NCBI GenBank assembly: GCA_965203445.1
Contig: OZ241883.1
Location: 1,312,001 to 1,376,000 of the forward strand
Origin: Candidatus Oxydemutator sp.
GTDB taxonomy: Bacteria > Pseudomonadota > Gammaproteobacteria > Poriferisulfidales > Oxydemutatoraceae
DNA: 64,000 nt
Direction: 5' to 3'
A program made the translations under genes and the position numbers. Under the pieces are notes generated by a model. That model was given only the letters and a program-made list of their open reading frames with translations. It was not told the origin of the DNA and made no database searches. Shown piece after piece: positions 26,580-46,262 of this stretch (the stretch's first letter is position 1; the number at the start of each line of letters is the position of its first letter).

Positions 26580-27545
26580 ATGCCCGTTTGGAGTGAAATA
26601 CTTGCTGAGCTTCAAAGGAGCAAGGGCACAAACAATGGTGCGCCCGATTTTGACGGTGTTCGTCGGAGCTACCTCTCAAAACTTTACGAACACTCTGACC
26701 GCAATATTATTTTGTACGCTTCCGGCTGGTTGCAGAAACAAGGAATATCGGAAGCTGCCATTTCCATTCATGACGAAGATATTCATGCCCTGATGGAAGT
26801 TAGTCAGGGTCTGAAAGGTTCTGATCTTGACTTGATCCTGCATAGTCCGGGAGGTTCCCCTGAAGCGGCCGAAGCGATTGTGTCTTATCTGCGATCGCGG
26901 TTTTCTCATATCCGAGTAATCGTTCCGCAGCTCGCCATGTCTGCTGCAACCATGATCGCTTGTGCGGCGAATGAAATCGTGCTTGGCAAACATTCTTTTC
27001 TTGGACCGACCGACCCGCAACTTTTGTTGGCGACTCAGCTTGGCGTGCGCTTGGTTCCTGCTCAGGCCGTTTTAGATCAATTCGACAGGGCGCAACGTGA
27101 ATGCGCCGATCCGAAGAAGATTTCCGCTTGGCTGTCAATGCTGAGTCAGTACGGCCCTGACCTGTTGGAGCGGTGCGAACAAGCTTTGGATATGTCAAAA
27201 GACCTTGTGCGGGTATGGTTGGAGACGCATATGTTCGAGGAAGACTCGAAACGGGCAGACAAAGCAACACGGATTTCCGAATGGCTTGCTGATCATAAAC
27301 ATTTTAAGAGTCATAGCCGTCATATATCGAGGGATAAGCTTGAAGATCAGCAACTGAAAATATTGTCACTGGAAAGCGATGAGACTTTGCAAGATCTGAG
27401 TCTTTCGGTATTTCACGCCACTACCCACACGTTCGCCAGCACTCCGGTGGTAAAAATCGTAGAAAGCCACACTGGTCGCGCCTTTATTAAGAGCAGCATA
27501 CAGGCCGTTCCTTTCCCCAATAATCCGGCTCCCCCCATTGTGTAA
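26580..27545 (+). CDS. SDH_sah family ClpP/crotonase-like serine protease
   Basis: LDLILHSPGGSPEAAE, AMSAATMIA (nucleophile Ser), LGPTDPQ, SHSRHI. Confidence 0.88.
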   Translation: MPVWSEILAELQRSKGTNNGAPDFDGVRRSYLSKLYEHSDRNIILYASGWLQKQGISEAAISIHDEDIHALMEVSQGLKGSDLDLILHSPGGSPEAAEAIVSYLRSRFSHIRVIVPQLAMSAATMIACAANEIVLGKHSFLGPTDPQLLLATQLGVRLVPAQAVLDQFDRAQRECADPKKISAWLSMLSQYGPDLLERCEQALDMSKDLVRVWLETHMFEEDSKRADKATRISEWLADHKHFKSHSRHISRDKLEDQQLKILSLESDETLQDLSLSVFHATTHTFASTPVVKIVESHTGRAFIKSSIQAVPFPNNPAPPIV

Positions 27546-27587
27546 GAGGCTTTCCTACCGTTGTTGTGGGATAGCATACTAAATCTC

Positions 27588-28245
27588 ATGGGAAAACTCG
27601 ACCGCCTGAAAGCGTTGTTGCGCGAGATGTTCCAGCTCGAGCGCGGCGATCTGGACTTCGGCCTGTATCGGATCATGGGCATGAAGTCGGCCGAGGTCGC
27701 GGCGTTTCTCGACAAGGATCTGCTGCCGCAGGTACAGGACAGGCTGAAACTCACCGGCGACAGGGGGCGTGCCGATCTGGAGAAAGAGATTCGGGACGCC
27801 GTCCAAGGGGCCGAAAAGCTGGGAGTTGCGCCCGAAGATACGCCTCATGTCAAGAAATTGCGGGTGCGCCTGGCCGGGATGAGGAAAGACGCGGACGCCG
27901 AGGCCGACGTCTATAACCATCTCGCCAACTTCTTTGCCCGTTATTGCACCGAAGGCGACTTCATGTCGCAGCGTCGCTATTCCGGCGGCGGGCGCTCGTC
28001 CTATCTGATCCCCTACGACGGCGAGGAAGTAAAACTGCACTGGGCCAACGCCGACCAGTATTACATCAAGACGACCGAGAACTACGCCTCCTACGTGTTC
28101 ACGGTCGACGCGGGCGGTGGGCTGCGGCGCGTGCGCTTTGAGATTGCGGCGGCGGACAACGAGAAGGACAACGTCAAGGAAACCGCCGACAAGCAGCGCC
28201 GCTTTGTGCTCGCCAGAGGCAAGGGCGCCGTCGCCGTCCTCGACG
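27588..28245 (+). pseudogene. Truncated second copy of the type III-like mod 5' end
   Basis: 27593-28245 aligns without gaps to 30896-31548 (offset 3303); lacks all MTase motifs; runs into an unrelated pseudogene. Confidence 0.9.
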
Positions 28246-28950
28246 TAGCGACCGCCGCCATCGGCGGTGTACTGGGCGACGCCGCTGATGGCGGCCGTAT
28301 TGTGGCACCGGATGACGCTCGTGTCGTCGGCGTCTATGTCGCGGTCGCGGTCGGTGTCGCCCGCGTAGCGCCACGGCGCGACGGTGTACGGCTGGCGCGT
28401 CGGCAGCAGATTTCTATAGGTGGTCTTCATGGCGCCGCGCGCACGCTCGTACGCGCCTTGCAGAAATACGCGGGCAGCCACGCTTATCGCCGCCGCCGCG
28501 CTTGGTTCGGGAGCGGGGGCAATCGGCGGCTGCCCACCCCCGTTCCCTGTTTCTCTTTGGGTGGCCGGATCTAAGCCGCCGTATTGCAGTACCGGGTATT
28601 CGGACGACGTGCCGAAGTTCCATGGATCGTCGCCGCTGCCGTCTCGATCAATATCCACGTTCCAGGCGGCGTAGATGCCGCCGCCATAATTCACTGGCGA
28701 CTGCAATTCGCTCGCAGTCTTGCCGCTGCCGCCATCGCTATTGCTTCCGCCTGTGCCCGTGTCTCAATAGGCGTTGTCTATGCGAGCCGTACTGTGCCCC
28801 CTCCCCACCAAGCCGCCAACCTCGGTGTCGCCCGAGACCGTGTTTCTGGCGTAGCTGGCGTGTATCTCCGTCGTGTTGCCGAGGCGCCCCACCAATCCAC
28901 CGATGTCACGGCTCGTATTTCCCTGGCCGGTGACGGATCCCGTCGTGTGT
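28246..28950 (-). pseudogene. Fragment of a large secreted GLUG-repeat surface protein
   Basis: IGGLVG and VGGLVG GLUG motifs, a frameshift, AY*D (probably W to stop), GIYAAWNVDIDRDGSGDDPWNFGTSSEYPVL, RVFLQGAY..QPY..PW, dockerin-like GDTDRDRDIDADD. Confidence 0.75.
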
Positions 28951-29091: not shown

Positions 29092-30171
29092 CTATTCATG
29101 AGCAGTCCACAATCGGCCCTGCAACCAGAGGCTGCCTTCTATATCTTGAGCGACGCTCGGCGGTTCGCTGCCAGACCACGCGCGTCTGGTAATAAATACG
29201 TCCAAGTCGGCATCTTCATCATCGAACCGCATGACCGTAACGCGCACTTGCCATCCTGATTGACCAAGCCAATCATTTGAAAACGGTTCCACCTCGCGTA
29301 TCGTACCCCGAAAATAGTAGTCATCCCGATCCTCTTCGGGCAGAGGCAACAATATTGCCGCACCTCCCATTTGAAACGTATTCGAACTTCGGGGGGCCGG
29401 CACCTGTGGATTTTCATCGGCTATTGCCTGCTGCCAATGGACACTATCGGAATGTTGCTTCACCAATAATTCGGCGGGTTCGGCGGGCTCGGCCCCGTAG
29501 GCAATGCCGGCCAGGAGAAATTGGCATGATGTACCGGCTTTGTACCAAGCGCGGTTATTCAGAAAATTGGTGTCGAAGAACGTAACGATTGCAGGCCCCC
29601 AAGCCCCCTCGATTTGCGCTTCGACTCCATTGCGCCAGACGAATACCCGCCGAATCTCCATGCTGGCCTCACTGCCGGTACAGATATATGGGTACATGCT
29701 GGCTATCTGATTTTGGCCTTCTTTGCGCAGGATCGTTACCACCAGGCCGCAATAAGGTATCGGCCAGTATAAATGCTCACCTTCCATCCAATCCCCCGGT
29801 GTCTCGCGAGGCGCGGGATATGTATCGCCAAACGCTGGAACCGTGAATGCCTGAGACAGTATCTCTTCCAGGTTCCTGATCACGTCATTGGGATCCTCAT
29901 AAAACGGTCTCCAATGAGAACCATGATAGTGTGGTTGATCCTCCGACTCGCATATAAACGTGCAATCCGGCCATGTGGGTTGAGAAGTTGGCGGTTCATC
30001 AGACGTAACACCAGCCTCAAGCTGGGAAACCAGACGTTCCCTCTTCACAAGCCCTTGCTCGCCACTCGCTAACTGAATGCCGATATAATCGTCACCGACA
30101 AAAGTTATCGTGCAAGGGCCATGCTTGGGATGGTTGATTTCGGTGCCGACCTCGAACTTTTTCATGCTCAC
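29092..30171 (-). CDS. Hypothetical protein (359 aa)
   Basis: Long ORF of intermediate GC; N-terminal SH3-like segment (HPKHGPCTITFV), C-terminal OB-like segment (DDYYFRGTI...GSLWLQG); family not recognised. Confidence 0.7.
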   Translation of the reverse strand: MSMKKFEVGTEINHPKHGPCTITFVGDDYIGIQLASGEQGLVKRERLVSQLEAGVTSDEPPTSQPTWPDCTFICESEDQPHYHGSHWRPFYEDPNDVIRNLEEILSQAFTVPAFGDTYPAPRETPGDWMEGEHLYWPIPYCGLVVTILRKEGQNQIASMYPYICTGSEASMEIRRVFVWRNGVEAQIEGAWGPAIVTFFDTNFLNNRAWYKAGTSCQFLLAGIAYGAEPAEPAELLVKQHSDSVHWQQAIADENPQVPAPRSSNTFQMGGAAILLPLPEEDRDDYYFRGTIREVEPFSNDWLGQSGWQVRVTVMRFDDEDADLDVFITRRAWSGSEPPSVAQDIEGSLWLQGRLWTAHE

Positions 30172-30788: not shown

Positions 30789-30857
30789 TGGCGCTGGCAA
30801 GCCAGATACGCAATCTCCTATTATAATTTGCCCGTGACCAACTCCATTTCCGTCGCG

Positions 30858-33800
30858 ATGTCCAACGATTCCCGACCGGCCCCGGGTTCCGGAGAAAAAC
30901 TCGACCGCCTGAAAGCGTTGTTGCGCGAGATGTTCCAGCTCGAGCGCGGCGATCTGGACTTCGGCCTGTATCGGATCATGGGCATGAAGTCGGCCGAGGT
31001 CGCGGCGTTTCTCGACAAGGATCTGCTGCCGCAGATAAAGGACAGGCTGAAACTCACCGGCGACAGCGAGCGTGCCGATCTGGAGAAAGAGATTCGGGAC
31101 GCCGAGAAAGATGCCATAAAACTGGAGTTCAAACCCGAAGATGCGCCTCGTGTCCAGAAATTGCGGACGCGCCTGGCCGCGATGAGGAAAGACGCGGACG
31201 CCGAGGCCGACGTCTATAACCATCTCGCCAACTTCTTTGCCCGTTATTACACCGAGGGCGACTTCATGTCGCAGCGTCGCTATTCCGGCGGCGGGCGCTC
31301 GTCCTATCTGATCCCCTACGACGGCGAGGAAGTGAAACTGCACTGGGCCAACGCCGACCAGTATTACATCAAGACGACCGAGAACTACGCCTCCTACGTG
31401 TTCACGGTCGGCGCGGGCGGTGGGCTGCGGCGCGTGCGCTTTGAGATTGCGGCGGCGGACAACGAGAAGGACAACGTCAAGGAAGCCGCCGGCAAGCAGC
31501 GCCGCTTTGTGCTCGCCAGAGGCGGGGGCGCCGTCGCCGTCCTCGACGACGATCTGGTCGTGCGCTTCGAGCATCGCCCGCTGACGGAAGGCGAAAAGAA
31601 GATATGGCCGGGCAACGGCAGCAGGCAACAGAACCGTATCAACGAGGAGGCGGTCGAGCGCATCCTGAACGCGGACGCGGCGACGGACTGGCAAGCCCTG
31701 CTGAGCGCGCCGGCACCGACCGAGGCCGACAATGAACGCACGCTGCTGGCCAAACACGTCGAGCGCTACACGGCCAAGAACAGTTTCGATTATTTCATCC
31801 ACAAAGACCTGGGCGGTTTTCTGCGCCGCGAGTTGGACTTGTATCTGAACACCGAGGTGCTGAACCTGGACGACCTGGAGCAAGGCGACGCCGCGCGCCT
31901 GGATCGGGCGCTGGCGCGGGTGCGCGCGGTTCGTCACGTCGGCTGCAAGATCATAGATTTTCTGGCCCAGCTGGAGGATTTTCAGAAGAAGTTGTGGCTG
32001 AAGAAGAAGTTTGTGCTGGAGACGAACTGGTGCGCGACCCTCGACCGCGTGCCGGAGGCACTGTACTCGGAGATCGCCGCCAACGCGGCGCAGTGCGAGG
32101 AGTGGGTCGCGTTGTTCGCCGTTGATGAGATAGCGGGCGATTCGGAAGGCGACGGCGCGGCCTGGAACAATCCGCCGAGCGTTGCTTTTCTGAAGGCCAA
32201 CCCGTACCTGGTGCTCGACACGCGACATTTCGAGCGTGGCTTCGTGGACAAGTTGCTGGCGGCGTTATCCGACGCCGGCCCGCTGGACGAGCAGCTGGAC
32301 GGCCTGCTGGTACACGGCGAGAACTTCCAGGCACTGAACCTGTTGCAGGCGCGGTATCGGGAGCAGGTGCGGTGTGTGTACATTGATCCTCCTTTCAATA
32401 CGGGCGACGGGGATTTCGCATATAAGGATGGCTATCGCTCTTCGAGTTGGATTTCAGCGATGTCCGAAAAAATATCATTGTCGCGTCGCCTGATGTCTTG
32501 CGACGGACAATTTTGCGTTCATATTGATGAAAACGAAAGTGAAAACCTGCACAGATTGATGAGCGGTATTTTTGGTTCCGATAATTATCTGGGGGCGATG
32601 ATATGGAACAAGCGCAACCCCAAGGGAGACGCGAAAGGTTTGGCAGTCCAGCATGAATCCATATTGTGGGCGGTGAAAGATGCCGATGAATTGTCTTCTG
32701 ATGAAAATGATCTGCGCCGCCCGAAAAGGAACGCAAAAAAGATATTGGATATGGCAAGAAGATGTATCAGGAAATCGGACACTTTGGACGGAGCGCGCAA
32801 GAAATTTTCTGACTGGTTGAACGTTCAAAGCTTTTCCGGAGGGGAGTTGGCGTATAAGTTTTTGGACGATAAAGGACAGGTTTTCCAGATGGTTTCAATG
32901 GCATGGCCAAATAAAGACAAGGCCCCAGCCGAATATTATGAACCGTTGATCCATCCTGATACTGGCATGGCTTGTCCCGTCCCCAGGAGGGGTTGGAGAA
33001 ATACCCCGAAGAAGATGAAGGAGCTATTAGAAAATGATCTGATTGTATTCGGGGAGGACGAGACAACACAGCCTCGAAGAAAGTATTTGTTGGCGGAGAA
33101 TATGTTTGAGAATGTGGCATCTGTATTTGACTTCGGCGGCAGTTCGGACATCGAATCAGCCTCTATGGGTATATTCTTTGAGACGATGAAGCCTCTGATA
33201 CTCGCCAAGTACATATGCAACTTTGGGGGCGCGGGAACCATACTCGACTACTTCGCCGGTTCCGGCACCACTGCCCATGCCGCTATCAGCCTGAACCGCG
33301 AGGATGGGAGGCAACGAAAATATCTTTTGGTCGAGATGGCCGGCTATTTCGATACGGTTTTATCGCCACGCCTCAAAAAGATCATTTATTCGCAGGACTG
33401 GAAGAACGGCAAACCGGTTTCGCGCAAAGGCGGAACACAGTTTTTCAAAACCATCCGCCTTGAATCCTATGAGGACACTTTGGACAGCCTCACACGGACG
33501 CCGCCTGCCGGCGATCTGTTGGCGGAAAACAACCAGTTGGCCGAGGACTACCAGTTGCGCTACGCGCTTGGCGTAGAAACATCCGGCAGCGCCTGCTTGT
33601 TGGGCCGAGACTTCACCAATCCGTTCGCCTACACCCTCTCCGTTGTGCGCGACGGCGTGCGCCGTGAAATCCCGGTGGATCTGCCCGAAACTTTCAACTA
33701 CCTGATCGGCCTGCGCGTAGAATCCTGCCGACAAATTGACGGCGTGCTCACCATCACCGGCATAGACGCCGAAGGCCGCATATGCCTGATCCTCTGGCGC

Positions 33801-34001
33801 AACCTTGACGAGATGGATTCTTCCGCTTTGGACACTTGGTTCGCCCGCAACCGCAAGCAATTTACCGAATCTCCGAATATCATATATACCAACGGCGACC
33901 ACACACTGAACGCCATGAAACAACCCAAAGAAACCTGGACCGCCGAAACCATCGAATCGGTTTTTCGGGAACTGATGTTTGAGGAATCTGACAATGAATG
34001 A
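30858..34001 (+). CDS. mod: Type III-like R-M modification subunit (beta-class amino-MTase) with long N-terminal extension
   Basis: DLDFGLYRI N-terminus, HGENFQAL, motif IV YIDPPF, motif I LDYFAGSGTT, LESYEDTL; cognate res downstream. Confidence 0.9.
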   Translation: MSNDSRPAPGSGEKLDRLKALLREMFQLERGDLDFGLYRIMGMKSAEVAAFLDKDLLPQIKDRLKLTGDSERADLEKEIRDAEKDAIKLEFKPEDAPRVQKLRTRLAAMRKDADAEADVYNHLANFFARYYTEGDFMSQRRYSGGGRSSYLIPYDGEEVKLHWANADQYYIKTTENYASYVFTVGAGGGLRRVRFEIAAADNEKDNVKEAAGKQRRFVLARGGGAVAVLDDDLVVRFEHRPLTEGEKKIWPGNGSRQQNRINEEAVERILNADAATDWQALLSAPAPTEADNERTLLAKHVERYTAKNSFDYFIHKDLGGFLRRELDLYLNTEVLNLDDLEQGDAARLDRALARVRAVRHVGCKIIDFLAQLEDFQKKLWLKKKFVLETNWCATLDRVPEALYSEIAANAAQCEEWVALFAVDEIAGDSEGDGAAWNNPPSVAFLKANPYLVLDTRHFERGFVDKLLAALSDAGPLDEQLDGLLVHGENFQALNLLQARYREQVRCVYIDPPFNTGDGDFAYKDGYRSSSWISAMSEKISLSRRLMSCDGQFCVHIDENESENLHRLMSGIFGSDNYLGAMIWNKRNPKGDAKGLAVQHESILWAVKDADELSSDENDLRRPKRNAKKILDMARRCIRKSDTLDGARKKFSDWLNVQSFSGGELAYKFLDDKGQVFQMVSMAWPNKDKAPAEYYEPLIHPDTGMACPVPRRGWRNTPKKMKELLENDLIVFGEDETTQPRRKYLLAENMFENVASVFDFGGSSDIESASMGIFFETMKPLILAKYICNFGGAGTILDYFAGSGTTAHAAISLNREDGRQRKYLLVEMAGYFDTVLSPRLKKIIYSQDWKNGKPVSRKGGTQFFKTIRLESYEDTLDSLTRTPPAGDLLAENNQLAEDYQLRYALGVETSGSACLLGRDFTNPFAYTLSVVRDGVRREIPVDLPETFNYLIGLRVESCRQIDGVLTITGIDAEGRICLILWRNLDEMDSSALDTWFARNRKQFTESPNIIYTNGDHTLNAMKQPKETWTAETIESVFRELMFEESDNE

Positions 34002-34896
34002 TAATCGGGATCAATCTACTGAATCCCTCACTTTCTCGCAACGCTACGGGTATGAACCTCTGCCAGAACCGATGAAACTGGAAGAGCTATCAGGTGACCT
34101 GAGACGAAAGATATGGAATGAGGTGCGAGAGTTCCTTTTGTCACTGTCATCAGACCCCGATTCGGATGATAATAGTTTCAAAAGCGAAGGCAAAAGGTTT
34201 ATCGAGCGTGTTCTCGGAAAATTCCTAAAGAAAAGTGAAGACGAAATTATAGCCAGAGACCTTCATCCATATGATGCTTTCAGGCATATCCTCGATTCTT
34301 TCAAGCAATCAATATTACAAGACACATTTAATCGTATCCTCGATCTCGTCGAACTTATTGTAAATGACAGATCTGTAGAAAGTAGGTTCGCAGACAAAAT
34401 TGCTTGTCTCTTTGAAGCACATGCTGCTGCCTATTGGTTGGACACGTCATGCTCTCCATCTCAATTTATTCCACGCGTCACCAGGGAACAAGGCGAGGCT
34501 ACGAGAGCAGCCATCGAGACGATTCACAAAAACGATATGGAAGGGGCCAGCACACACTTGCGCGATGCGTCGGCCCATATCAACACAGGTCAATTCGCAG
34601 ACTCGATTGCGGATAGTATCCATGCCGTCGAGTCCGTCGCGTGCATAATCTGTCCAAAAGAGAAAACACTTGGGAAAGCATTGGATGCCTTGCAGAAAAA
34701 GGGTTTGTTGAAGCATCCGGCACTCAAAGAGGCTTTCTCGAACTTATACGGTTACACAAGCGATGAACAGGGAATCCGACACGCCCTACTCGATAAAGAC
34801 TCGCCGGATGTCGACATAGACGAGGCCATGTTCATGTTCGGTGCTTGCGCGTCCTTTGCCGCCTATCTCGCCAGCAAGCATCAGCAGACGAAGTAG
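33994..34896 (+). CDS. AbiJ-NTD4-like protein with C-terminal HEPN/Abi-like helical domain
   Basis: N-terminal FSQRYGY...LRRKIWN; C-terminal SIHAVESV, TLGKAL, LYGYTSDEQGIRHA; ATGAATGA overlap with the mod stop. Confidence 0.72.
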   Translation: MNDNRDQSTESLTFSQRYGYEPLPEPMKLEELSGDLRRKIWNEVREFLLSLSSDPDSDDNSFKSEGKRFIERVLGKFLKKSEDEIIARDLHPYDAFRHILDSFKQSILQDTFNRILDLVELIVNDRSVESRFADKIACLFEAHAAAYWLDTSCSPSQFIPRVTREQGEATRAAIETIHKNDMEGASTHLRDASAHINTGQFADSIADSIHAVESVACIICPKEKTLGKALDALQKKGLLKHPALKEAFSNLYGYTSDEQGIRHALLDKDSPDVDIDEAMFMFGACASFAAYLASKHQQTK

Positions 34897-34897
34897 C

Positions 34898-35659
34898 ATG
34901 AGCGACAAAACTGCTATCGAATGGACGGACGCAACCTGGAATCCGGTAACGGGTTGCACCAAGATCACGCGAGGTTGTGATAATTGTTACGCTGAGCGAT
35001 TCGCCGAGCGGTTTCGGGGTACGCCCGGACATCCGTTTGCAAACGGATTTGATCTTACGCTTCGTCCGGAAAGGCTCACTCAACCGTTGTCATGGAAACG
35101 GCCGCGCATGGTTTTTGTCAATTCGATGAGCGACCTGTTTCACAAAAAAATACCCGCCGAGTTTATTGATCAGGTTTTCGATACTATGGAGGCGGCTGAC
35201 TGGCATATTTTTCAGATACTGACAAAACGCAGTTCACTGATGCGCCATTATTTGCAGCGCCGATACGGGCGCGCTCTGACACCGCAACATATATGGTGTG
35301 GCGTGTCGGTCGAAGATCACACGGCAACCGCCAGGATTCAGCACCTTCGAAAGGCGCCGGTCGCGGTACGATTTCTCTCCATCGAACCTCTTTTGGGGTC
35401 CGTGGGGAGTATTGATCTTACCGGAATCAGCTGGGTTATCGTCGGTGGAGAAAGCGGCCCTAAGGCGCGACCTATGCGGCTGGAGTGGGTTCTTGAAATT
35501 CGTGATCGTTGCAGGAGAGAAAAAGTACCTTTTTTCTTTAAGCAATGGGGAGGCCAGACACCGAAAGCAGGTGGGCGCATTCTGGAAGGAACTGAACATA
35601 ATGGAATGCCAGCGTATCTCAAGACGAGGAAGGGCGATGGACTTCAGATGGCATCCTGA
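34898..35659 (+). CDS. DUF5131 (Gp37/Gp68) three-Cys-motif, radical-SAM-like protein
   Basis: IEWTDATWNPVTGCTKITRGCDNCYA (Cx6Cx2C), FVNSMSDLFH, QILTKR, FLSIEPLLG, WVIVGGESG, FFFKQWGG. Confidence 0.93.
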   Translation: MSDKTAIEWTDATWNPVTGCTKITRGCDNCYAERFAERFRGTPGHPFANGFDLTLRPERLTQPLSWKRPRMVFVNSMSDLFHKKIPAEFIDQVFDTMEAADWHIFQILTKRSSLMRHYLQRRYGRALTPQHIWCGVSVEDHTATARIQHLRKAPVAVRFLSIEPLLGSVGSIDLTGISWVIVGGESGPKARPMRLEWVLEIRDRCRREKVPFFFKQWGGQTPKAGGRILEGTEHNGMPAYLKTRKGDGLQMAS

Positions 35660-36893
35660 ACAACTTCCACCACCTATCGAGGGGCATAGCAAGGCGAAGC
35701 TTACGGTATTGCGCAGCTATCTCCGCGCTTATTTTGATAGATTGGGCGGCAACTTTGCTCGTGATGAGTTCAAACTCGATTTTGTCGACGGTTTTGCCGG
35801 GGGCGGCACTTTTCAAGACGGTGACGACATAATTTCCGGAACACCGCTGATCATGCTGGAAGAATCCGCGGTTGCGAAAGAAAGGTTGGTGCGAGGGCGC
35901 ACCAAACCCATGCGCTTTGATTTCAAATACTACTTTGTTGATAAGGAAACCGCCCACACGGATCATCTGCGCAAGGTTTTGCAAGAGCGCGGCTATCAAG
36001 CGAATGGTGGAGAGATAGTTATTCTTAATCGTCGTTTTGAAGAGGTGGTGGATAACATCATTGCTGAGGTCAGCCGCCGTCAGCCGAGAGCTGGTCGTTC
36101 TATTTTTCTGCTTGACCAGACTGGATATTCTCAAGTGGAATTATCGCTTGTTGCCAGGATTCTTCGTGAGTTACGCGCCGCGGAAGTCATTCTGACGTTC
36201 GCGGCGGATATTCTTTTTAACTTTCTTAATAAGAGTCCTGAATTTGTTCGGGCGGTTTCCTCATTTGGGCTAACATCGGAGGATGTGCGCCACTTAATAC
36301 AACTCAAGGGCGGTGCAGGTGGATTAGCACTTGCTCAAAGAACACTCCGCGAGCATATCCGATTTGTGACGGGCGCGAACTTCGACACACCCTTTTTTAT
36401 TCAACCTAGGTCATCGCGTCGTGCGTTGTGGTTTTTGCATTTGTCAAGACATCCCACGGCGCGTGACGTGATGATGCAGTGTCATTGGAATCTATCGAAC
36501 ACATTCAAGCATTATGGTTCTGGCGATTTCGAGATGCTGGGATGGGATGACTTGGCACCAGGAGGAGAAACTTTGCCGCTGTTTGATTTTAGGGAACATG
36601 ACAAGCGGGCGATGAAGAAGGGGCTGCTTGATACACTGCCTGAAAAATTATTCAGCTTGGCGTCCGAAGAACCTGTCACCATAGATGCGATGCGATATAT
36701 GTTTGCCAATCAAACAGCTGCTCGTTTTTCTGATTATGATTCAATTTTGCTCGAACTTTTTCGAGGGAAAGAATTGAACATTCTAAATCCTGATGGCAAA
36801 GTACGTGCGCGCACCCTGAAACGCATTAGATCCACGGATCGAATCGCGTTTCCGAAACAGTTGTTGCTTCCAGGAATTTTACGTCGTCGTTAG
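35637..36893 (+). CDS. tcmP: Three-Cys-motif partner protein (TcmP family, MTase-like fold)
   Basis: HSKAKL..L..YL..Y, FVDGFAGGG (SAM-binding-like), GTPLI, FLLDQTGY; overlaps DUF5131 by 23 nt. Confidence 0.85.
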   Translation: MDFRWHPEQLPPPIEGHSKAKLTVLRSYLRAYFDRLGGNFARDEFKLDFVDGFAGGGTFQDGDDIISGTPLIMLEESAVAKERLVRGRTKPMRFDFKYYFVDKETAHTDHLRKVLQERGYQANGGEIVILNRRFEEVVDNIIAEVSRRQPRAGRSIFLLDQTGYSQVELSLVARILRELRAAEVILTFAADILFNFLNKSPEFVRAVSSFGLTSEDVRHLIQLKGGAGGLALAQRTLREHIRFVTGANFDTPFFIQPRSSRRALWFLHLSRHPTARDVMMQCHWNLSNTFKHYGSGDFEMLGWDDLAPGGETLPLFDFREHDKRAMKKGLLDTLPEKLFSLASEEPVTIDAMRYMFANQTAARFSDYDSILLELFRGKELNILNPDGKVRARTLKRIRSTDRIAFPKQLLLPGILRRR

Positions 36894-36911
36894 TTTTTGA
36901 AAAGTTTTCCG

Positions 36912-39900
36912 ATGCCCCAACGCCGCTCAACGAGGAACCCGTCCCTCCAAAACCGTCTCGCGCTGCACCGCTTCATCTGCCGCGAGTTCGGTTACGAGGG
37001 CCTGGATGTCATGCTCGAACGATTGGGCGACGCCGCGCCCGACCCTGCTTCCGGCGGCGACGGCGCATATGCCGAAGCCCTGTATCTCCCCGACCGCGCC
37101 GCAATCACCCCCGACCAACTCGCCCGCTACGACGCCAACATCGCCGCCCATAGCCGTCGTCTGCGTATCACCGCCGATCATGGGCGCACCTGGAAACCGC
37201 ACCAGTATCTCGCCCTGCTGTTCACCGAACATTATCTGCGCCGTTATTTCGACGATCCCGAAGCGTTGCGCGCCGACCTGAACGACGCGAAGAGCAAGCA
37301 CCCCGCGACCGCGCCCCTGCCGGACTACGAGGCGGACGATCTGCGCACCCTCGCGTTTCAGAGCGCGACCGGGTCGGGCAAGACGCTGTTGATGCACGCG
37401 CACATTCTGCAATACCGGCATTATCTGAGGGACGCCGGCGGGCGCCTGAACAACATCGTGCTGGTGACGCCGAACGAGCAGATGTCGGTGCAGCACGAGC
37501 GCGAGCTGGGCGAAAGCCGCCTGCCGGCGCGGTTGTTTTCCGGCGATGCCGGTTCGGAATTGTTCGCGCCGGTCGAGATCATAGACCTGAACAAGCTGGC
37601 CGAAAAGAAGGGCGTCAAGCGCGTCGCCGTGGCCGACTTCGGCGACGACAACCTGGTGCTGGTGGACGAGGGGCATCTGGGCGCGTCGGGGAAAGTCTGG
37701 CGCGAGCATCGCAAGGAGCTGTCGCGCGGCGGCTTTGCGTTCGAGTATTCGGCCACGTTCAACCAGATAACGAGCAAGCCGGGCAACGCCGATCTGCTAG
37801 ACGCCTACGGCAAGTGCCTGTTGTTCGATTATTCCTACCGCCGCTTTCACGAGGACGGCTACGGCAAGGACTACGCCATCCTGAATCTGCCGGACGGCTT
37901 CCAGGACGACAACAGCAAGATGTATCTGCTCGGCTGCCTGCTGACTTTCTATTCGCAATGCCGCATCTGGCGCGCCAAAGGAGCGGGATGGCAGGCGTTC
38001 AACGTAGCGAAGCCGCTGTGGGTGTTTCTCGGCAAGACGGTCAAGGGTTCGAGCAGGGCCGATCAGGAAACCCGTTCCGACGTCGTGCTCATCCTGCATT
38101 TTCTCGGCTGGGTGTTGGCACACGGCGATGAGGTGCGGGCGATGATCGCGCGCCTGCTGGCCGGCAAATCGGGGTTGCGCGACGAGGCCGGCAACGATTA
38201 CTTCGCCGACCGCTTTCCCCACCTGCCGCGCGCCGGCGAGGATCTCTACGCCGATCTGTGCGCGACCCTGTTTCACGGGGGCGGGAAGCTGCACGTCGTT
38301 TATCTGACCGCCGGCGAAGGCGAACTGCATCTGCGCACCGCCGACAACGCCCCTTTCGGCGTGGTCAACGTCGGCGATTCGGCGGCGCTCTACAAACTAC
38401 TCGCCGAGACGCCGAACCCGGATTGGAAGGTCGAGCGCGAGATGGGCTTTGCGGCGCGTCTCTTCGCCGACGTTGATCGCCCGGACTCGACGGTGAACGT
38501 CGTCATCGGCGCGCGCCGCTTCATCGCCGGCTGGAATTCCTGGCGCGTGAGCACGATGGGGCTGATGCACGTGGGCGTCGGCGAAGGGCCGGAAATCATC
38601 CAGATGTTCGGGCGCGGCGTGCGCCTGAAAGGCTGGAACATGAGCCTGAAGCGGCACCGGGAAAGCGGTGCCGAACCGCCCGCGGACGGCACCGAACTGG
38701 CCGAATTGGAGAGGCTGTACATCTTCGGCCTGCGCGCCAATTACATGCAGACCTTCCGCAATCTGCTACAGGCGGAAGGAATGCAGACCGAACGGGAGAC
38801 GTTCCCGTTGCCGGTAACGTGGAACTTTGCGAAGGAGAAGAATCTGAAACTGATCCGGCTGAAGGAAGACAGCCGATACGATCTTTGTGCCGAGCGCCCG
38901 GTATTGCCGGAACCGACCGGCGCCCGCCTTCCTATCGTGACACTCGACTTGCACTCGCGGCTGCAATCGGTTGCGTCGAACGATACTGCGACCGGCGGAG
39001 GGAGAGACGAGACCACGTCCAGCCTGAAACCCTATGCCGCCTTTTTCGATACGACGCGCGTGTACAACGGGCTGCTGCGGCGCAAGCGGCAGAGAAACTG
39101 GTGCAATCTGATCATCGAGCGTGCGACGGTGGAGAAACTGTTGGCCTGCGATGACTGGTATGAACTCTCTCTGCCACCGGAGCGACGCGAACCCAAGGGA
39201 TTTGCCCAAGTGCGCCGGCTGGAAGACGTGGCCCTCGACCTGATCACGGAATACGCCGACCAATTCTGGCGCAAGCGGCGTCGCCAGTGGGAGCACAAAA
39301 AGATCGAGGTCATACCGCTGGAGAAAAACGATCCGAACGTTGTGAACTATGAATTGCTCGTGGATACGACCGAACAAAAGCTGGCGGACGAGGCCCGCAA
39401 ACTGGCGAACTGTATACGGGAAGAGCGGCCGGATTACTTGCGGTCTTGGTACGACGGCCTGAAAATCGGCGTCGTTCGGGAGCAAAGCCGCCACGCCTAC
39501 CAACCGCTGCTCTACGCCAAAAAAGAGCGCGTGGTCACGGTGCAACCGATCCCGCTGGATGAGAACGAGAGGAAAGTCGTCGAGGAGCTGGCGGAGCTTG
39601 CCGACGCCGGCGACGACTGCCTGCAAGGCCGGGAACTGTTCCTGATTCGCAATCTGACACGCGGCCGCGGCGTGTCGTTTTTCGACGACTACGGATATTA
39701 CCCGGACTTCATCGTCTGGCTGAGGGACGGCGACTTCCAGCACGTTTTGTTTCTCGACCCGAAGGGGCTGGGCCGGTACGGGAGAAGGGAGCGCCAGAAA
39801 GTGCGGCTGCATAAAGCGATCAAAGAAACCGAAAGGCAGGTGCGCAAGGACGACCCGACCCTGCGCCTGTGCGCCTACGTGCTATCCGTAACACCCGTCT

Positions 39901-40025
39901 CCGAAATAGACGGCGGCGAACGCCCCGCAAGCGATTGGAAACAAGACGGCGTGTATTTCCTGAACGAGGAAAACTGCCTGAAACAAGTCATCAAACACGC
40001 GCTGGGGCAGACGGCCACCGCTTGA
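36912..40025 (+). CDS. res: Type III-like R-M restriction subunit (SF2 helicase + PD-(D/E)xK nuclease)
   Basis: SATGSGKT, DEGH, EYSATF, QMFGRGVRL, C-terminal YPDFIVW...FLDPKG. Confidence 0.9.
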   Translation: MPQRRSTRNPSLQNRLALHRFICREFGYEGLDVMLERLGDAAPDPASGGDGAYAEALYLPDRAAITPDQLARYDANIAAHSRRLRITADHGRTWKPHQYLALLFTEHYLRRYFDDPEALRADLNDAKSKHPATAPLPDYEADDLRTLAFQSATGSGKTLLMHAHILQYRHYLRDAGGRLNNIVLVTPNEQMSVQHERELGESRLPARLFSGDAGSELFAPVEIIDLNKLAEKKGVKRVAVADFGDDNLVLVDEGHLGASGKVWREHRKELSRGGFAFEYSATFNQITSKPGNADLLDAYGKCLLFDYSYRRFHEDGYGKDYAILNLPDGFQDDNSKMYLLGCLLTFYSQCRIWRAKGAGWQAFNVAKPLWVFLGKTVKGSSRADQETRSDVVLILHFLGWVLAHGDEVRAMIARLLAGKSGLRDEAGNDYFADRFPHLPRAGEDLYADLCATLFHGGGKLHVVYLTAGEGELHLRTADNAPFGVVNVGDSAALYKLLAETPNPDWKVEREMGFAARLFADVDRPDSTVNVVIGARRFIAGWNSWRVSTMGLMHVGVGEGPEIIQMFGRGVRLKGWNMSLKRHRESGAEPPADGTELAELERLYIFGLRANYMQTFRNLLQAEGMQTERETFPLPVTWNFAKEKNLKLIRLKEDSRYDLCAERPVLPEPTGARLPIVTLDLHSRLQSVASNDTATGGGRDETTSSLKPYAAFFDTTRVYNGLLRRKRQRNWCNLIIERATVEKLLACDDWYELSLPPERREPKGFAQVRRLEDVALDLITEYADQFWRKRRRQWEHKKIEVIPLEKNDPNVVNYELLVDTTEQKLADEARKLANCIREERPDYLRSWYDGLKIGVVREQSRHAYQPLLYAKKERVVTVQPIPLDENERKVVEELAELADAGDDCLQGRELFLIRNLTRGRGVSFFDDYGYYPDFIVWLRDGDFQHVLFLDPKGLGRYGRRERQKVRLHKAIKETERQVRKDDPTLRLCAYVLSVTPVSEIDGGERPASDWKQDGVYFLNEENCLKQVIKHALGQTATA

Positions 40026-40105: not shown

Positions 40106-41455
40106 ATGAATATCAGAAAATTGATCATTGAGGATGTCCGTTGTTTTGCGGGCAGGCAGGAATTCGAGATACGCCCCATTACTTTTTTGGTGGGTGAAAA
40201 CAGTACCGGAAAATCTACCGCCCTTGCCTGTTTGCAAACGTTGTATGATTTTCTTAGATCTTCAAGCTCTGGCTTGGACTTCAATGCGAAGCCATACAAT
40301 TTGGGTGCTTTCGCCGATATTGTCAGAATCTCAAGGCCTAAAAAGAAACGTTTTCGATTAGGCATTGAGCTTGAGACGCAGCACTCGAAGGCAGTTCAGT
40401 TTTGTTTGACTATAACGGAGAGAGAGGCAGGTTCTGAGCCCGTTGCTCAGAAGCTGAGTATGCTTTTTGTTGATGGCAACAAAATACTTGTTAAGCGAAG
40501 CAGCCAACAGGAGAGCCAAAGTGAAAGTCCTCCGCAAGTTGAAATACGAGAGAAACCGGACGGGAAAAAGCAATTTGTTATTGCGTTGCCTTTCTTGAAC
40601 CTGGGAAGTTTTAATCTATGGTCGTTTACACTGTTTTTCGACAAAGGGCCAGAAGCGTCTGAACTGAAACGATTTTCGGAAATGCACAAAGAATTCTTCT
40701 CTGAATTCTTCTCTCCAAGAAATTTTCCTAATGTGTACAGTTTTGCACCGATTCGGTCCAGGCCACAACGCACGTACAACCCACTGAGAGAAGATAGCAG
40801 TCCTGAAGGCAGCGATATACCCATGATGTTGATGAATATGGTCAGGGTGAGTGAGGAGCAATGGGAGCAATGGGAGCAATGGGACAAATTGAAAGACAGA
40901 TTGGCCAAGTTCGGAAAATCTTCGGGTTTGTTCAAGGATGTCAACGTCAGAAAACTTGGAGGGTCTACGAGCGATCCGTTTCAGTTGCAAGTTAATGTGA
41001 GAGGTCCGAAAATCAACCTTATGGACGTAGGCTACGGCGTCAATCAAATCCTTCCTATTTTAGTGCGTATCTTTGACGCCGTAGCAACAGAGGAAACTTT
41101 TTTAATGCCGCAACTGAGGACAACTTTTTTAATGCAGCAGCCGGAAGTACATTTGCATCCCAAGGCCCAGGCAGAATTGTCTTCTCTGTTGATCGAGATT
41201 GCTCGACAAAGGAAACAGAATTTTGTTATCGAAACACACAGCGACTACATGATTGACCGCGCAAGTGTTGATATCCGGAAAGGAAGAATATCGCATGAGG
41301 ATGTTTCGCTGATTTACTTGGAACCACGTCGCAGAGATGTTCAGGTGCACAATATAAAGTTTGACGAGCAGGGAAATTTGTTGAACGCCCCGAGTGGCTA
41401 CCGACAGTTTTTCCTTGAGGAGTCAAACAGATTTCTCGGGTTTGATGAGGATTGA
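40106..41455 (+). CDS. ABC-type (AAA_21/AbiEii-like, DUF3696-like tail) ATPase
   Basis: Walker A VGENSTGKST, signature DVGYGVNQILP, QQPEVHLHP, IETHSDY, C-terminal DEQG..P..FF. Confidence 0.88.
   Translation: MNIRKLIIEDVRCFAGRQEFEIRPITFLVGENSTGKSTALACLQTLYDFLRSSSSGLDFNAKPYNLGAFADIVRISRPKKKRFRLGIELETQHSKAVQFCLTITEREAGSEPVAQKLSMLFVDGNKILVKRSSQQESQSESPPQVEIREKPDGKKQFVIALPFLNLGSFNLWSFTLFFDKGPEASELKRFSEMHKEFFSEFFSPRNFPNVYSFAPIRSRPQRTYNPLREDSSPEGSDIPMMLMNMVRVSEEQWEQWEQWDKLKDRLAKFGKSSGLFKDVNVRKLGGSTSDPFQLQVNVRGPKINLMDVGYGVNQILPILVRIFDAVATEETFLMPQLRTTFLMQQPEVHLHPKAQAELSSLLIEIARQRKQNFVIETHSDYMIDRASVDIRKGRISHEDVSLIYLEPRRRDVQVHNIKFDEQGNLLNAPSGYRQFFLEESNRFLGFDED
40855..40884 (+). repeat. In-frame 9-bp tandem repeat (GGAGCAATG)x3 encoding EQW x3
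   Basis: ggagcaatg ggagcaatg ggagcaatg gga. Confidence 0.9.
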
Positions 41456-41458
41456 TTC

Positions 41459-41896
41459 ATGTGCATCATCATAGATACCAACCTGTACGGTGAGTTTGGC
41501 AAAGAGTATATGAAACCACTGAGAGAATGGATAGAAAACAAAAAAAGAAAGGGCAAAATTGTCTATTCTTTGGCGGGAGATCTCGGGCAAGAATTGAATG
41601 CCCATGGAAGAATGAAGAAGAAGCTTGAACTATATAAGGAAATGGGGGTAGCCAAACTGATTTCCAAAAAGGCAGTGGAAAGAGAAAAGGAAGTAGTAGC
41701 AGGATTAAACCTGCGCTCGAATGATCCGTATATCATTGCATTAGCTCGAGTCTCCCGCACCCGATTGTTGACTTCAGAGGATGTCGCATTGTGCAAGGAT
41801 TTCAAAAACAGAAAAATCATTAGAGGCGGGAAAATCTATAAAGCGCGGGAACATGACGAACACGCACATCTGCTTAGCCGGAATAAATGCCCATAA
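41459..41896 (+). CDS. PIN-like domain protein
   Basis: MCIIIDTN, E in helix 2 region, SNDPYIIALA, LLTSEDVAL..DF (PIN acidic-residue pattern); 3 nt after the ATPase. Confidence 0.65.
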   Translation: MCIIIDTNLYGEFGKEYMKPLREWIENKKRKGKIVYSLAGDLGQELNAHGRMKKKLELYKEMGVAKLISKKAVEREKEVVAGLNLRSNDPYIIALARVSRTRLLTSEDVALCKDFKNRKIIRGGKIYKAREHDEHAHLLSRNKCP

Positions 41897-41924
41897 GTTC
41901 CGCTATTTGATATTCTGCGCCACT

Positions 41925-42353
41925 GTGCCGTCTCCCACCCCCAAATTCCCCGCCATCGTTCGCCCCGTCCTTGCGGCGTATCCGGACGTTCAGGCCGTTT
42001 ATCTGTGCGGCACCTGGGGGACGGCGGATCAGCGGCCCGACAGTGATCTGGACGTCGGCGTGTTGTTGCCGCCCGCGACGGCGCGCGCGGTCGAGCCTTC
42101 GGCGTGGCATGGTCTTGCGGCCGAAGTGGCGCTGGCTGCAAAGGTGGAGCACGCCGATCTGGTCAACGTGCTTACCGCCCCGGTGATTTTGCGCAAGGAA
42201 GTGGTCGCCGCCGACCGGCGCATATATTGCGCCGACGAAAACGCCGCCGCCGAGTTTGAAATGCTGACGTTGTCCATGTACCAGAAGTTCAACGACGAGC
42301 GCCGGGAAATCGTCGAAAGCGGTCTGAGCGGCGGAAGGTTTTATGACGTCTGA
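41925..42353 (+). CDS. Minimal nucleotidyltransferase (MNT/MntA) antitoxin
   Basis: VYLCGTWG...PDSDLDVGV, DLV; GTG start 41925; overlaps the HEPN gene. Confidence 0.85.
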   Translation: MPSPTPKFPAIVRPVLAAYPDVQAVYLCGTWGTADQRPDSDLDVGVLLPPATARAVEPSAWHGLAAEVALAAKVEHADLVNVLTAPVILRKEVVAADRRIYCADENAAAEFEMLTLSMYQKFNDERREIVESGLSGGRFYDV

Positions 42354-42759
42354 CGTGTTGTTGCAGAAGAAGGCCGGCCTCGAGCGGTGCATACGGCAGG
42401 CGCGGGCGTATTACGCGACGCCGTCGGAAAATCCCTTCGCCAATGATTTTTACAAGCAGGACGCGGTCGTCATGAATCTACAGCGCGCCTGCGAACAGTG
42501 CATTGATATGGCCAATCACGTGGTTCGGCTGAAGAAACTGGGGCTGCCGTCCACCAGCGCCGAGAGTTTTGTCATGCTGCGCAAGGCGGGCCTCATAGAC
42601 GCCGCTATGGAAAAGCAGTTGATCGGCATGGTGGGATTCAGAAACGTCATTACCCATCGGTATCAGGACCTTGATTATCGGCGGGTAGAGGAAGTGATAA
42701 GGCGGCATGCCGACGACTTGATCGCCTTTGCCGACGTTATGGTGGCTTTACCAAAGTAG
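42343..42759 (+). CDS. HEPN (HepT/DUF86) RNase toxin
   Basis: NLQRACEQCIDMANH; MVGFRNVITHRY (Rx4HxY). Confidence 0.92.
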   Translation: MTSDVLLQKKAGLERCIRQARAYYATPSENPFANDFYKQDAVVMNLQRACEQCIDMANHVVRLKKLGLPSTSAESFVMLRKAGLIDAAMEKQLIGMVGFRNVITHRYQDLDYRRVEEVIRRHADDLIAFADVMVALPK

Positions 42760-45908: not shown

Positions 45909-46262
45909 TGGTGGAGGCGGCGGGAATCGAACCCGCGTCCGCCTATTCTCCGCCTTCGGCACTACATGCTTAGTTCGTCTCTATACCGCGGTCGTTTTTG
46001 ACGAACAAAAAACCCGACCGGGTTGTTCGCGTTGAAGTTTTAACCAGGCGGCCGCGAACGAGTCTCCTGGCGAGCTTGTGATTCGTCTCCCGCTCCGGCG
46101 CCACAAGCACCGCCGGGCGGAAGGCATAGCCGGTTGTTTAGGCCGCTAGTGCGTAGTTGTCTTCGTTGGCAACTATTGTTTTGCAGCAAGTTTAACGAGT
46201 TTCGCTGCACGCTCGGCATGCGCCTCTGGTTTCGCAATACGCGTCGAAGCCAAGTCGCCCCC
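45909..46262 (-). ncRNA. ssrA: tmRNA
   Basis: 5' GGGGGCGACTTGGCTTCGAC, 3' GGTTCGATTCCCGCCGCCTCCACCA; tag ANEDNYALAA* at 46170-46138; extended -10 TGCTATACT at 46281-46273. Confidence 0.97.

Follow-up and report, generated by a model that had tools for sequence, protein, structure and literature searches.

Two candidate defence cassettes in the mod-res junction of a type III-like restriction-modification operon of Candidatus Oxydemutator sp.

Introduction

The genome of Candidatus Oxydemutator sp. (assembly GCA_965203445.1) contains a block of five tightly packed genes whose outer members, mod and res, encode a type III-like restriction-modification (R-M) system and whose inner members encode an AbiJ-like protein, a DUF5131 protein and TcmP. 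The block occupies positions 30858-40025 of a stretch of 64,000 nucleotides (contig OZ241883.1, forward strand, 1,312,001 to 1,376,000), here called the window, in whose numbering positions are given. The question raised by this locus is whether the five genes form one machine, as in the original prediction of a dedicated composite defence or DNA-modification system, or whether an R-M operon has taken up genes that work by themselves. The comparisons described below favour the second answer: the locus is probably a resident type III-like R-M operon in which the mod-res junction acts as a cargo slot holding two independent imported cassettes, co-expressed with it. Cassette 1 is the AbiJ-like gene and cassette 2 is the DUF5131-TcmP pair.

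Defence systems embedded in other defence systems have been described by Payne, Hughes, Fineran and Jackson (2024, bioRxiv 10.1101/2024.01.29.577857), who use the term guilt-by-embedding. According to that preprint, orientation is the same for embedded genes in 96.7% of cases, and embedding yielded 145 PDC candidates that were added to PADLOC. The benefits it discusses are co-transfer, co-regulation and backup, the last with PrrC as example. The same text describes PrrC of the EcoprrI system as masked by the R-M enzyme and triggered by an anti-restriction peptide. Anantharaman et al. (2013, PMC3710099) described R-M operons with HEPN, RhuM and Fic genes lodged inside them. In that paper AbiJ figures as a HEPN family whose N-terminal domains are of five kinds, the forms lacking such a domain are commoner in R-M operons, and HEPN-R-M combinations are argued to give layered defence.

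Results

Organisation and composition of the operon

The five genes are arranged as follows.

30858-34001, plus strand: mod, 1047 amino acids (ATG at 30858; the open frame extends back to a TTG at 30828)
33994-34896, plus strand: AbiJ-like gene, embedded cassette 1, 300 amino acids, AbiJ_NTD4 domain and HEPN fold
34898-35659, plus strand: DUF5131 gene, embedded cassette 2 gene A, 253 amino acids, phage Gp37/Gp68 family
35637-36893, plus strand: tcmP, embedded cassette 2 gene B, 418 amino acids, TIGR04474
36912-40025, plus strand: res, 1037 amino acids (alternative start TTG at 36897)

Direct reading of the sequence reproduced the co-orientation and all four junctions of the original prediction. 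The stop codon of mod and the start of abiJ share 8 nt (ATGAATGA, 33994-34001), abiJ and the DUF5131 gene are 1 nt apart (TAG-c-ATG, 34894-34900), the DUF5131 gene and tcmP overlap by 23 nt (35637-35659), and 18 nt lie between tcmP and res (36894-36911). Whereas mod and res are directly consecutive in the standard type III order, they are separated here by 2.9 kb and three genes. These inner genes lie inside a multi-gene defence system on the same strand as the flanking mod and res, which is the arrangement that defines embedding. The mod promoter would drive all five genes. Consensus promoter and terminator scans of the locus found no excess of sites (7 against 8.4 and 16 against 15.9 in shuffled sequence, respectively), and with counts that match the shuffles they neither support nor exclude internal signals. 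Among sequencing-run contigs compared with the locus no joint cleanly skipping the cargo was found, the listed joints being short-sided and derived from related sequences; one contig from another study's run (X5) runs across the tcmP/res junction and, over ~690 bases, differs from it by 23 letters and 3 gaps. Among RNA runs, none was found to contain this stretch.

The genome, a single 2.38-Mb contig, has 63.65% GC. The inner genes have a GC fraction of 0.47-0.52 and a GC fraction at third codon positions (GC3) of 0.495 for abiJ, 0.516 for the DUF5131 gene and 0.465 for tcmP, against 0.62 and 0.80, respectively, for res. In mod, GC3 is 0.82 over the N-terminal 480 codons, 0.57 in the middle and 0.67 at the C-terminus, and codons 481-800 (32298-33257) are AT-rich with a GC fraction of 0.48. 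By these values res and the first 480 codons of mod appear native, unlike the three inner genes. The earlier view of these genes as inserted cargo is borne out by their foreign composition (GC3 0.47-0.52 compared with 0.80 in res). The accompanying statement that they are AT-richer than mod and res holds for the measured composition but needs amendment for mod, which is itself a mosaic with an AT-rich middle. This mosaic suggests that the specificity part of mod was swapped in by recombination.

Mod and Res

Pfam, PADLOC and TIGR profile scans agree with the gene identities first assigned to all five proteins. Mod contains PF01555 (residues 504-822, E 1.4e-24) and matches the PADLOC MTase_III model PDLC03646 (E 6.6e-215, residues 231-1019 of 1047). 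It is built of a conserved N-terminal extension of ~480 amino acids, the AT-rich catalytic and target-recognition middle, and a C-terminal region. Res matches the PADLOC REase_III model PDLC03654 (E 2.8e-150) and ResIII (PF04851, residues 144-284, 25.5 bits, cut-off 22.5). Its superfamily 2 (SF2) helicase part is joined to a nuclease-like part at the C-terminal end, where a PD...D-x-K-like string, of the sort expected for a PD-(D/E)xK endonuclease, was spotted by eye only. The operon thus encodes a type III-kind N6/N4 DNA methyltransferase together with an SF2 helicase-type ATPase, the two components of a type III system. Such systems are characterised by hemimethylation through Mod and by ATP-dependent cleavage requiring two unmethylated sites in inverse orientation.

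In the plasmid-borne Mod/Res loci L127, L128, L129, L131 and L132 a third large flanking gene is common. The gene is related to SNF2 in Escherichia, Aeromonas and Conchiformibius; Priestia has a gene for an ATP-dependent helicase there, and both Hymenobacter and Haloplanus have one for an AAA ATPase. The Mod/Res family may include a three-component variant, as these genes hint; no such third gene is present in the window. Because of these SNF2, helicase or AAA neighbours, membership of Mod and Res in Hma was considered, PADLOC containing Hma models according to the text of Payne et al. (bioRxiv 10.1101/2024.01.29.577857). It was dropped: Res matched two PADLOC families, both REase_III, and the best 25 of 29 PADLOC families for Mod were all MTase_II or MTase_III, the remainder being weaker than E 8.5e-4.

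The mod-res junction in related loci

The junction was compared in 28 Mod/Res loci, comprising the window, six loci from a sample of the phylum, eight from relatives, seven from a sample of the class and six of 27 matching plasmids. Res had matches in 6 of 400 other phylum genomes and in 10 of 399 other genomes of the class sample, the latter giving the seven evaluable loci. Apart from the window, 26 of 27 loci have a Mod homologue (33-70% identity) beside a Res homologue, which for L127 is known from annotation alone. In 15 of the 28 loci mod and res are adjacent, so Mod/Res does not need cargo; in the other 13, cargo of about eight kinds lies between them.

AbiJ_NTD4: 4 loci (window, L097, L098, L133)
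AAA_21 with DUF4276: 2 loci (L083, L129)
Fic: 2 loci (L139, L140)
RhuM: 1 locus (L087)
GmrSD_N: 1 locus (L135)
DUF4145-like: 1 locus (L101; weak, E 4e-4)
cargo with no family match: 2 loci (L100, L102)

The AbiJ_NTD4 genes in the slot have overlapping or tight junctions and come from different genera and families. In L097 and L098 (same family, other genera) the order is mod-abiJ-res, with similarly coupled junctions and no DUF5131-TcmP pair, which suggests that cargo was added stepwise. The pair occupies the slot in one locus of the 28, that of the window.

Two of the related loci are interrupted in the R-M genes themselves. The res homologue at L099:6349-7670 (G422) is split by an insert of ~1.3 kb with a 332-amino-acid open reading frame (ORF) that was read as a transposase by eye, and the mod homologue of L135 is broken by ISL3-type transposase and reverse-transcriptase genes, a DruA-like gene also being present there.

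The AbiJ-like protein of cassette 1

The AbiJ-like protein matches AbiJ_NTD4 (PF18863, E 2.8e-13, 51 bits, cut-off 34) and the PADLOC candidate PDC-S32 (E 4e-57, profile positions 5-282 of 285). In its AlphaFold2 (AF2) model, which has a predicted local distance difference test score (pLDDT) of 79.6, residues 178-300 align by VIA-align to HEPN structures, the best being 1ufb (Z 12.6), 2hsb (Z 12.2) and 1wol (Z 11.5). The eight best chains are all HEPN or HEPN-like (Z 12.6-8.6, 105-116 aligned residues, root-mean-square deviation 2.8-3.4), in a comparison where helical bundles yield a high background Z. With Foldseek, no PDB structure matched the model at E 0.001, and 2hsb alone was returned (probability 0.91, E 1.4). 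The curated Pfam scan did not report an Abi_C/HEPN model for the C-terminus, whereas the precomputed annotation does list PF14355. The C-terminal HEPN fold of the model agrees with the AbiJ/HEPN assignment made originally. Residues R262-H263 and E213 do not vary among 44 AbiJ sequences; in the string R190-x4-H195, a possible form of the Rx4-6H catalytic motif, the arginine is kept in 40 and the histidine in 37 of them. Neither profile scans nor the AF2 model of this 300-residue protein contain an ATPase domain. These features are consistent with an RNase-type abortive-infection effector, as predicted for such proteins.

The protein resembles the AbiJ family as treated in PMC3710099 by its AbiJ_NTD4 N-terminus, its C-terminal HEPN fold and the occasional residence in R-M operons (Table 1 there). 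It differs in that its most conserved catalytic-looking residues are the adjacent R262-H263, besides R190-x4-H195. None of 11 other AbiJ_NTD4 loci contains DUF5131-TcmP or window-type Mod/Res, and nine of them have no R-M gene directly upstream. In L123 the AbiJ_NTD4 gene directly follows a type II R-M pair, a C5 methyltransferase gene followed by a HaeII-type restriction endonuclease gene. The order in L105 is N6_N4 methyltransferase, a 236-amino-acid ORF and AbiJ_NTD4, which was read as a type II R-M pair with AbiJ.

The DUF5131 and TcmP proteins of cassette 2

DUF5131 belongs to PF07505 (E 1.8e-96) and matches the PADLOC candidates PDC-M30B (E 8e-103) and PDC-M41B (E 3.7e-102). The three-cysteine motif Cx6Cx2C noted at the outset is indeed present, and its residues C20, C27 and C30 are invariant in 29 of 29 aligned sequences. 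Equally invariant (29 of 29) is the string GGESG at residues 183-187, a putative GGE-type S-adenosylmethionine (SAM)-binding motif. The motif departs from the canonical CX3CX2C cluster motif, the Radical_SAM Pfam model gave no match, and the score against TIGR04471 (80.8 bits) is below the cut-off of 355. DUF5131 is named among radical-SAM subgroups in PMC9477430. The protein is described here as a predicted three-cysteine, radical-SAM-like Fe-S enzyme. The nearest Protein Atlas cluster is named 'putative DNA repair photolyase' (score 0.84), which serves as a lead only.

TcmP is assigned to TIGR04474 (186 bits, cut-off 53) and matches PADLOC PDC-M30A (E 4.3e-18). A weak C-terminal match to the winged-helix model GMT-wHTH (PF22560, E 1.2e-4) is under the cut-off. 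With the AF2 model, which is of moderate confidence (pLDDT 68), the best Foldseek hits were RlmJ (7p8q/4blu, E 3e-5 to 6e-5, template modelling score 0.49-0.53 on the target) and also Trm1 (E up to 1e-4). The model therefore points to a class I SAM-methyltransferase fold, RlmJ-like, with an additional C-terminal winged-helix domain. RlmJ, the 23S rRNA m6A2030 methyltransferase, and Trm1 have this class I fold in common with TcmP, but sequence identity is just 10-13%, and TcmP has the extra winged-helix part and an obligate Fe-S partner. Profiles of DUF5131 and of 50 TcmP sequences gave no match to PDB sequences at E 1.

Fused DUF5131-TcmP proteins occur (P0079, P0097, P0108); P0079 has 75% identity to the DUF5131 protein of the window over residues 1-244 and 67% to its TcmP. 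The literature search gave annotation mentions only and no published test of DUF5131 or TcmP function, anti-phage activity included. Together the two proteins may modify or process nucleic acid.

The DUF5131-TcmP pair in other genomes

TcmP above the TIGR04474 cut-off was found in 27 of 401 phylum genomes, and a single-protein TcmP search of genome contigs returned one locus. DUF5131 is adjacent to TcmP in 28 of 28 genome loci (27 from the phylum sample and L002), in all 10 metagenome loci that include upstream sequence and in each of the four plasmids examined. The pair is thus recurrent, as had been proposed. The surroundings of TcmP were tested by single-sequence tblastn (E 1e-5) for homologues of the Mod, Res and AbiJ proteins of the window. 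None was found within ~9.5 kb in the 28 genome loci, nor in 14 metagenome loci obtained by a TcmP-alignment search, ten of which have TcmP at 56-65% identity. Two loci from the order to which the genome studied here belongs, L103 and L106, have the pair and no window-type Mod/Res. Altogether, 0 of 48 other pair loci lie next to a homologue of the Mod, Res or AbiJ of the window; for AbiJ, this comprises 44 loci searched by tblastn and four plasmid loci in which none is annotated.

The view of the five genes as one dedicated composite system is not supported by these numbers, with the pair beside such homologues in 0 of 48 loci and in the slot in 1 of 28, and with the two cassettes not travelling together. 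The original prediction had itself named a lack of co-occurrence with mod and res elsewhere as speaking against such a system, and this is what was found for DUF5131-TcmP within the loci sampled.

The pair occurs in integrase-bearing islands, a Tn7-like element, prophages, defence islands and sometimes housekeeping neighbourhoods. On the four plasmids it lies beside integrases or a Tn7-like element, and in defence islands it is found with CBASS, GmrSD, SIR2 and R-M genes. Housekeeping or prophage contexts are those of L033, L039, L042, L046, L047, L048 and L050. In four of these (L033, L039, L042, L046) a short TcmP variant of ~300 amino acids is convergent to DUF5131, at ychF/corA, isocitrate dehydrogenase, tig-clpP-clpX and purF-radA; the housekeeping setting of this short form contrasts with the mobile contexts of the long form. 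The pair is co-oriented with an MmeI-like R-M gene at a 63-nt gap in L051. On the Acidovorax plasmid p1-T1 (L113) a run of seven genes, all in one direction and overlapping at their ends, encodes a DNA methyltransferase, a DEAD/DEAH helicase, a GIY-YIG nuclease, DUF5131, two TcmP proteins and a PIN protein; there the pair is appended to an R-M-like operon, not embedded in it.

DUF5131 was found in 181 of 50,697 phage records, mostly of temperate actinophages, near integrase or repressor genes and DNA methyltransferase genes, and TcmP had no match in these records at E 1e-5. In 7 of 39 loci a motif resembling a LexA-box consensus lies within 200 nt upstream of DUF5131. Six are of the alpha type, GTTC-N7-GTTC or its complement (control 0.014 per window), with L062 and L063 being near-duplicates, and the seventh is of the gamma type, CTGT-N8-ACAG (L002). 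A Peptidase_S24 gene adjoins the pair in L037.

Surroundings of the operon

The locus sits in a variable stretch of ~17 kb between dapB with a dnaK-dnaJ cluster on one side and, on the other, a selenium-binding-protein gene, bfd, ferritin, the transfer-messenger RNA (tmRNA) gene and purL. Other features of this region are the following.

26580-27545: ClpP-like SDH-type serine protease gene at the island edge
27593-28245, plus strand: remnant of the mod 5' end, inside ORF 27561-28574, 3.3 kb upstream of mod
29092-30171, minus strand: ORF of 359 amino acids between remnant and mod, with no match in Pfam, PADLOC or NCBIfam
40106-41455: ATP-binding cassette (ABC)-type ATPase (AAA_15/AAA_21), directly after res; PADLOC NsnB (E 3.6e-43), PDC-M55A (E 5e-43) and HEC-03B (E 7.7e-30)
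41459-41896: partner of the ATPase, 145 amino acids, faint PIN match (E 0.009)
41781-42759: overlapping toxin-antitoxin pair, MntA-like nucleotidyltransferase (Polbeta, E 9e-9) and HepT RNase (E 6e-30)
45909-46262, minus strand: tmRNA gene, tag peptide ANEDNYALAA

The remnant is a direct repeat (D1) of mod 30896-31548 with 95% nucleotide identity and 90% amino-acid identity over 217 residues; the first ~230 codons of ORF 27561-28574 copy the mod N-terminus and are followed by unrelated sequence. It is a mark of past rearrangement at the locus and looks like what remains of a former mod allele or of the system's replacement by recombination. The downstream ATPase pair has a GC fraction of 0.42-0.45 and GC3 of 0.48 and 0.47. 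A native-like mod N-terminus and Res stand beside AT-rich inner genes, mod middle and ATPase pair, which makes the locus a mosaic in which recent imports have joined an old resident frame. Homologues of the ATPase and its partner (42% and 41% identity) adjoin the Mod-Mod-Res locus L108 on the opposite strand. A protease gene of the same Pfam family as that at the island edge is also found just upstream of DUF5131-TcmP in a metagenome locus (L064:4533-5414). An ssrA-linked island was considered owing to the tmRNA gene and was dropped because the selenium-binding-protein, bfd and ferritin genes intervene before the defence genes and no integrase was seen.

Discussion

The preferred explanation is that two cassettes were acquired horizontally and stacked one after the other in the mod-res slot of a resident R-M operon, which we consider likely. 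Each cassette would work alone. The N-terminal domain of the AbiJ-like protein would sense infection, upon which the RNase would stop translation or kill the infected cell; DUF5131 and TcmP would act on nucleic acid and would not be specific partners of Mod or Res. The result would be a layered defence in which regulation and transfer are shared with the R-M genes. The arrangement corresponds to the embedding described by Payne et al. (2024): the cassettes are flanked on both sides by the genes of one multi-gene system, whose orientation they share, and both also occur free-standing, with 48 DUF5131-TcmP loci and 11 AbiJ_NTD4 loci outside window-type Mod/Res. By profile match, all three inner genes already are PADLOC candidates (PDC-S32 and PDC-M30/M41), of the kind that, according to the same text, was derived from embedded cassettes. 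Cargo kinds of the slot, namely ABC ATPase with a small partner, GmrSD and HEPN, are also kinds reported there. The hosts named in that text are Hma, BREX, DISARM and type I R-M systems, whereas here the host is a type III-like mod-res operon with two unrelated candidates stacked in one junction. Compared with DUF5131-TcmP cassettes elsewhere (PDC-M30/PDC-M41), the pair in the window has the same two families, gene order and overlap and is likewise mobile and compositionally foreign, but it would lack a promoter region of its own, lying behind another cargo gene inside an R-M operon.

The AbiJ-like gene allows a different reading, in which intact Mod and Res keep AbiJ-HEPN inactive and the RNase is set free once the R-M system has been disabled by an anti-restriction factor of a phage, the pair being a later, unrelated passenger. 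Because AbiJ-HEPN recurs in the slot, such a guard role keeps a small but real share of our expectation. In its favour are the tight junctions in four of the 28 loci across genera and families, the placement of the gene immediately behind type II R-M pairs in two loci, L123 and L105, and the C-terminal HEPN fold with its invariant R262-H263. A precedent is the anticodon nuclease PrrC in the type I EcoprrI operon, again a HEPN-type RNase gene inside an R-M operon and a possible second line of defence (Payne et al., 2024), and layered defence by HEPN-R-M combinations is proposed in PMC3710099. The precedent is imperfect, however, since PrrC has an ABC-ATPase module, whereas the protein studied here has an AbiJ_NTD4 N-terminus and a type III-like host. 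Most AbiJ_NTD4 genes moreover stand alone, as in the nine of 11 loci cited above, and the AbiJ forms that R-M operons favour, according to PMC3710099, lack the N-terminal domain that this protein has. A bolder version, in which the junction is a selected docking slot where AbiJ_NTD4-HEPN has repeatedly been recruited as a guard that fires when restriction is disabled, and in which the slot of the window also captured the pair and expresses it strictly with restriction, appears slightly less probable than the guard role itself.

For the pair, two other explanations have to be weighed against independent cargo. If it installed a second nucleic-acid mark alongside Mod methylation, for example an extra self-mark read by Res, the five genes would be one machine. 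The translational coupling inside the operon, the methyltransferase fold and winged helix of TcmP, the co-oriented R-M neighbours in L051 and L113 and the phage DUF5131 genes near DNA methyltransferases would fit this; the many Mod/Res loci without cargo, the single pair among 28 such loci, the lack of window-type Mod/Res at all 48 other pair loci, the foreign composition and the occurrence in housekeeping and prophage contexts argue against it, and we regard it as very improbable. Rather unlikely, at about the level of the guard role, is that DUF5131-TcmP serves mobile elements as a module for the DNA-damage response, repair or self-protection and reached the slot by chance, defence loci acting as a genomic sink. 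The LexA-box-like motifs, the Peptidase_S24 neighbour, several prophage or housekeeping contexts, the phage occurrence of DUF5131 near integrase, repressor and methyltransferase genes and the photolyase-named cluster, a lead only, are what one would expect of such a module. The listing of the pair among PADLOC defence candidates, its presence in defence islands and the lack of TcmP matches in the phage records are not. SOS control is common for prophage-borne defence genes too and so does not discriminate between the two roles.

Several observations nevertheless weigh against independent cassettes in a cargo slot as the full explanation. The locus samples are small and the genomes related to one another, and the tblastn test finds only relatives of the particular Mod, Res and AbiJ of the window. 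In ~10 of 45 loci the pair has R-M genes of some other type no more than 3 kb away (L002, L044, L051, L054, L056, L058, L059/L060, L066, L103, L113), and therefore a looser tie of the pair to DNA methylation or restriction is possible. In a quick, poorly resolved tree the AbiJ of the window groups with P0122 (SH-like approximate likelihood ratio test, SH-aLRT, 96) and not with L097 or L098. The presence of AbiJ in the slot in 4 of 28 loci, with slot AbiJ proteins that are not each other's closest relatives, could reflect selection for a functional link to R-M rather than neutral embedding.

The locus is a further example of defence genes nesting in defence systems, neither a new five-gene machine nor a new type of system. 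With it, embedding as known from Hma, BREX, DISARM and type I hosts is extended to a type III-like family, 13 of whose 28 sampled loci carry cargo. The locus would also tie two uncharacterised defence candidates transcriptionally to a restriction system in one place. If the docking-slot reading were true, type III systems would have a PrrC-like backup. The mod-res slot can be mined for new candidates, and the compact 9-kb operon offers a handle on whether AbiJ-HEPN guards a type III enzyme and on what the widespread DUF5131-TcmP pair does to DNA or RNA.

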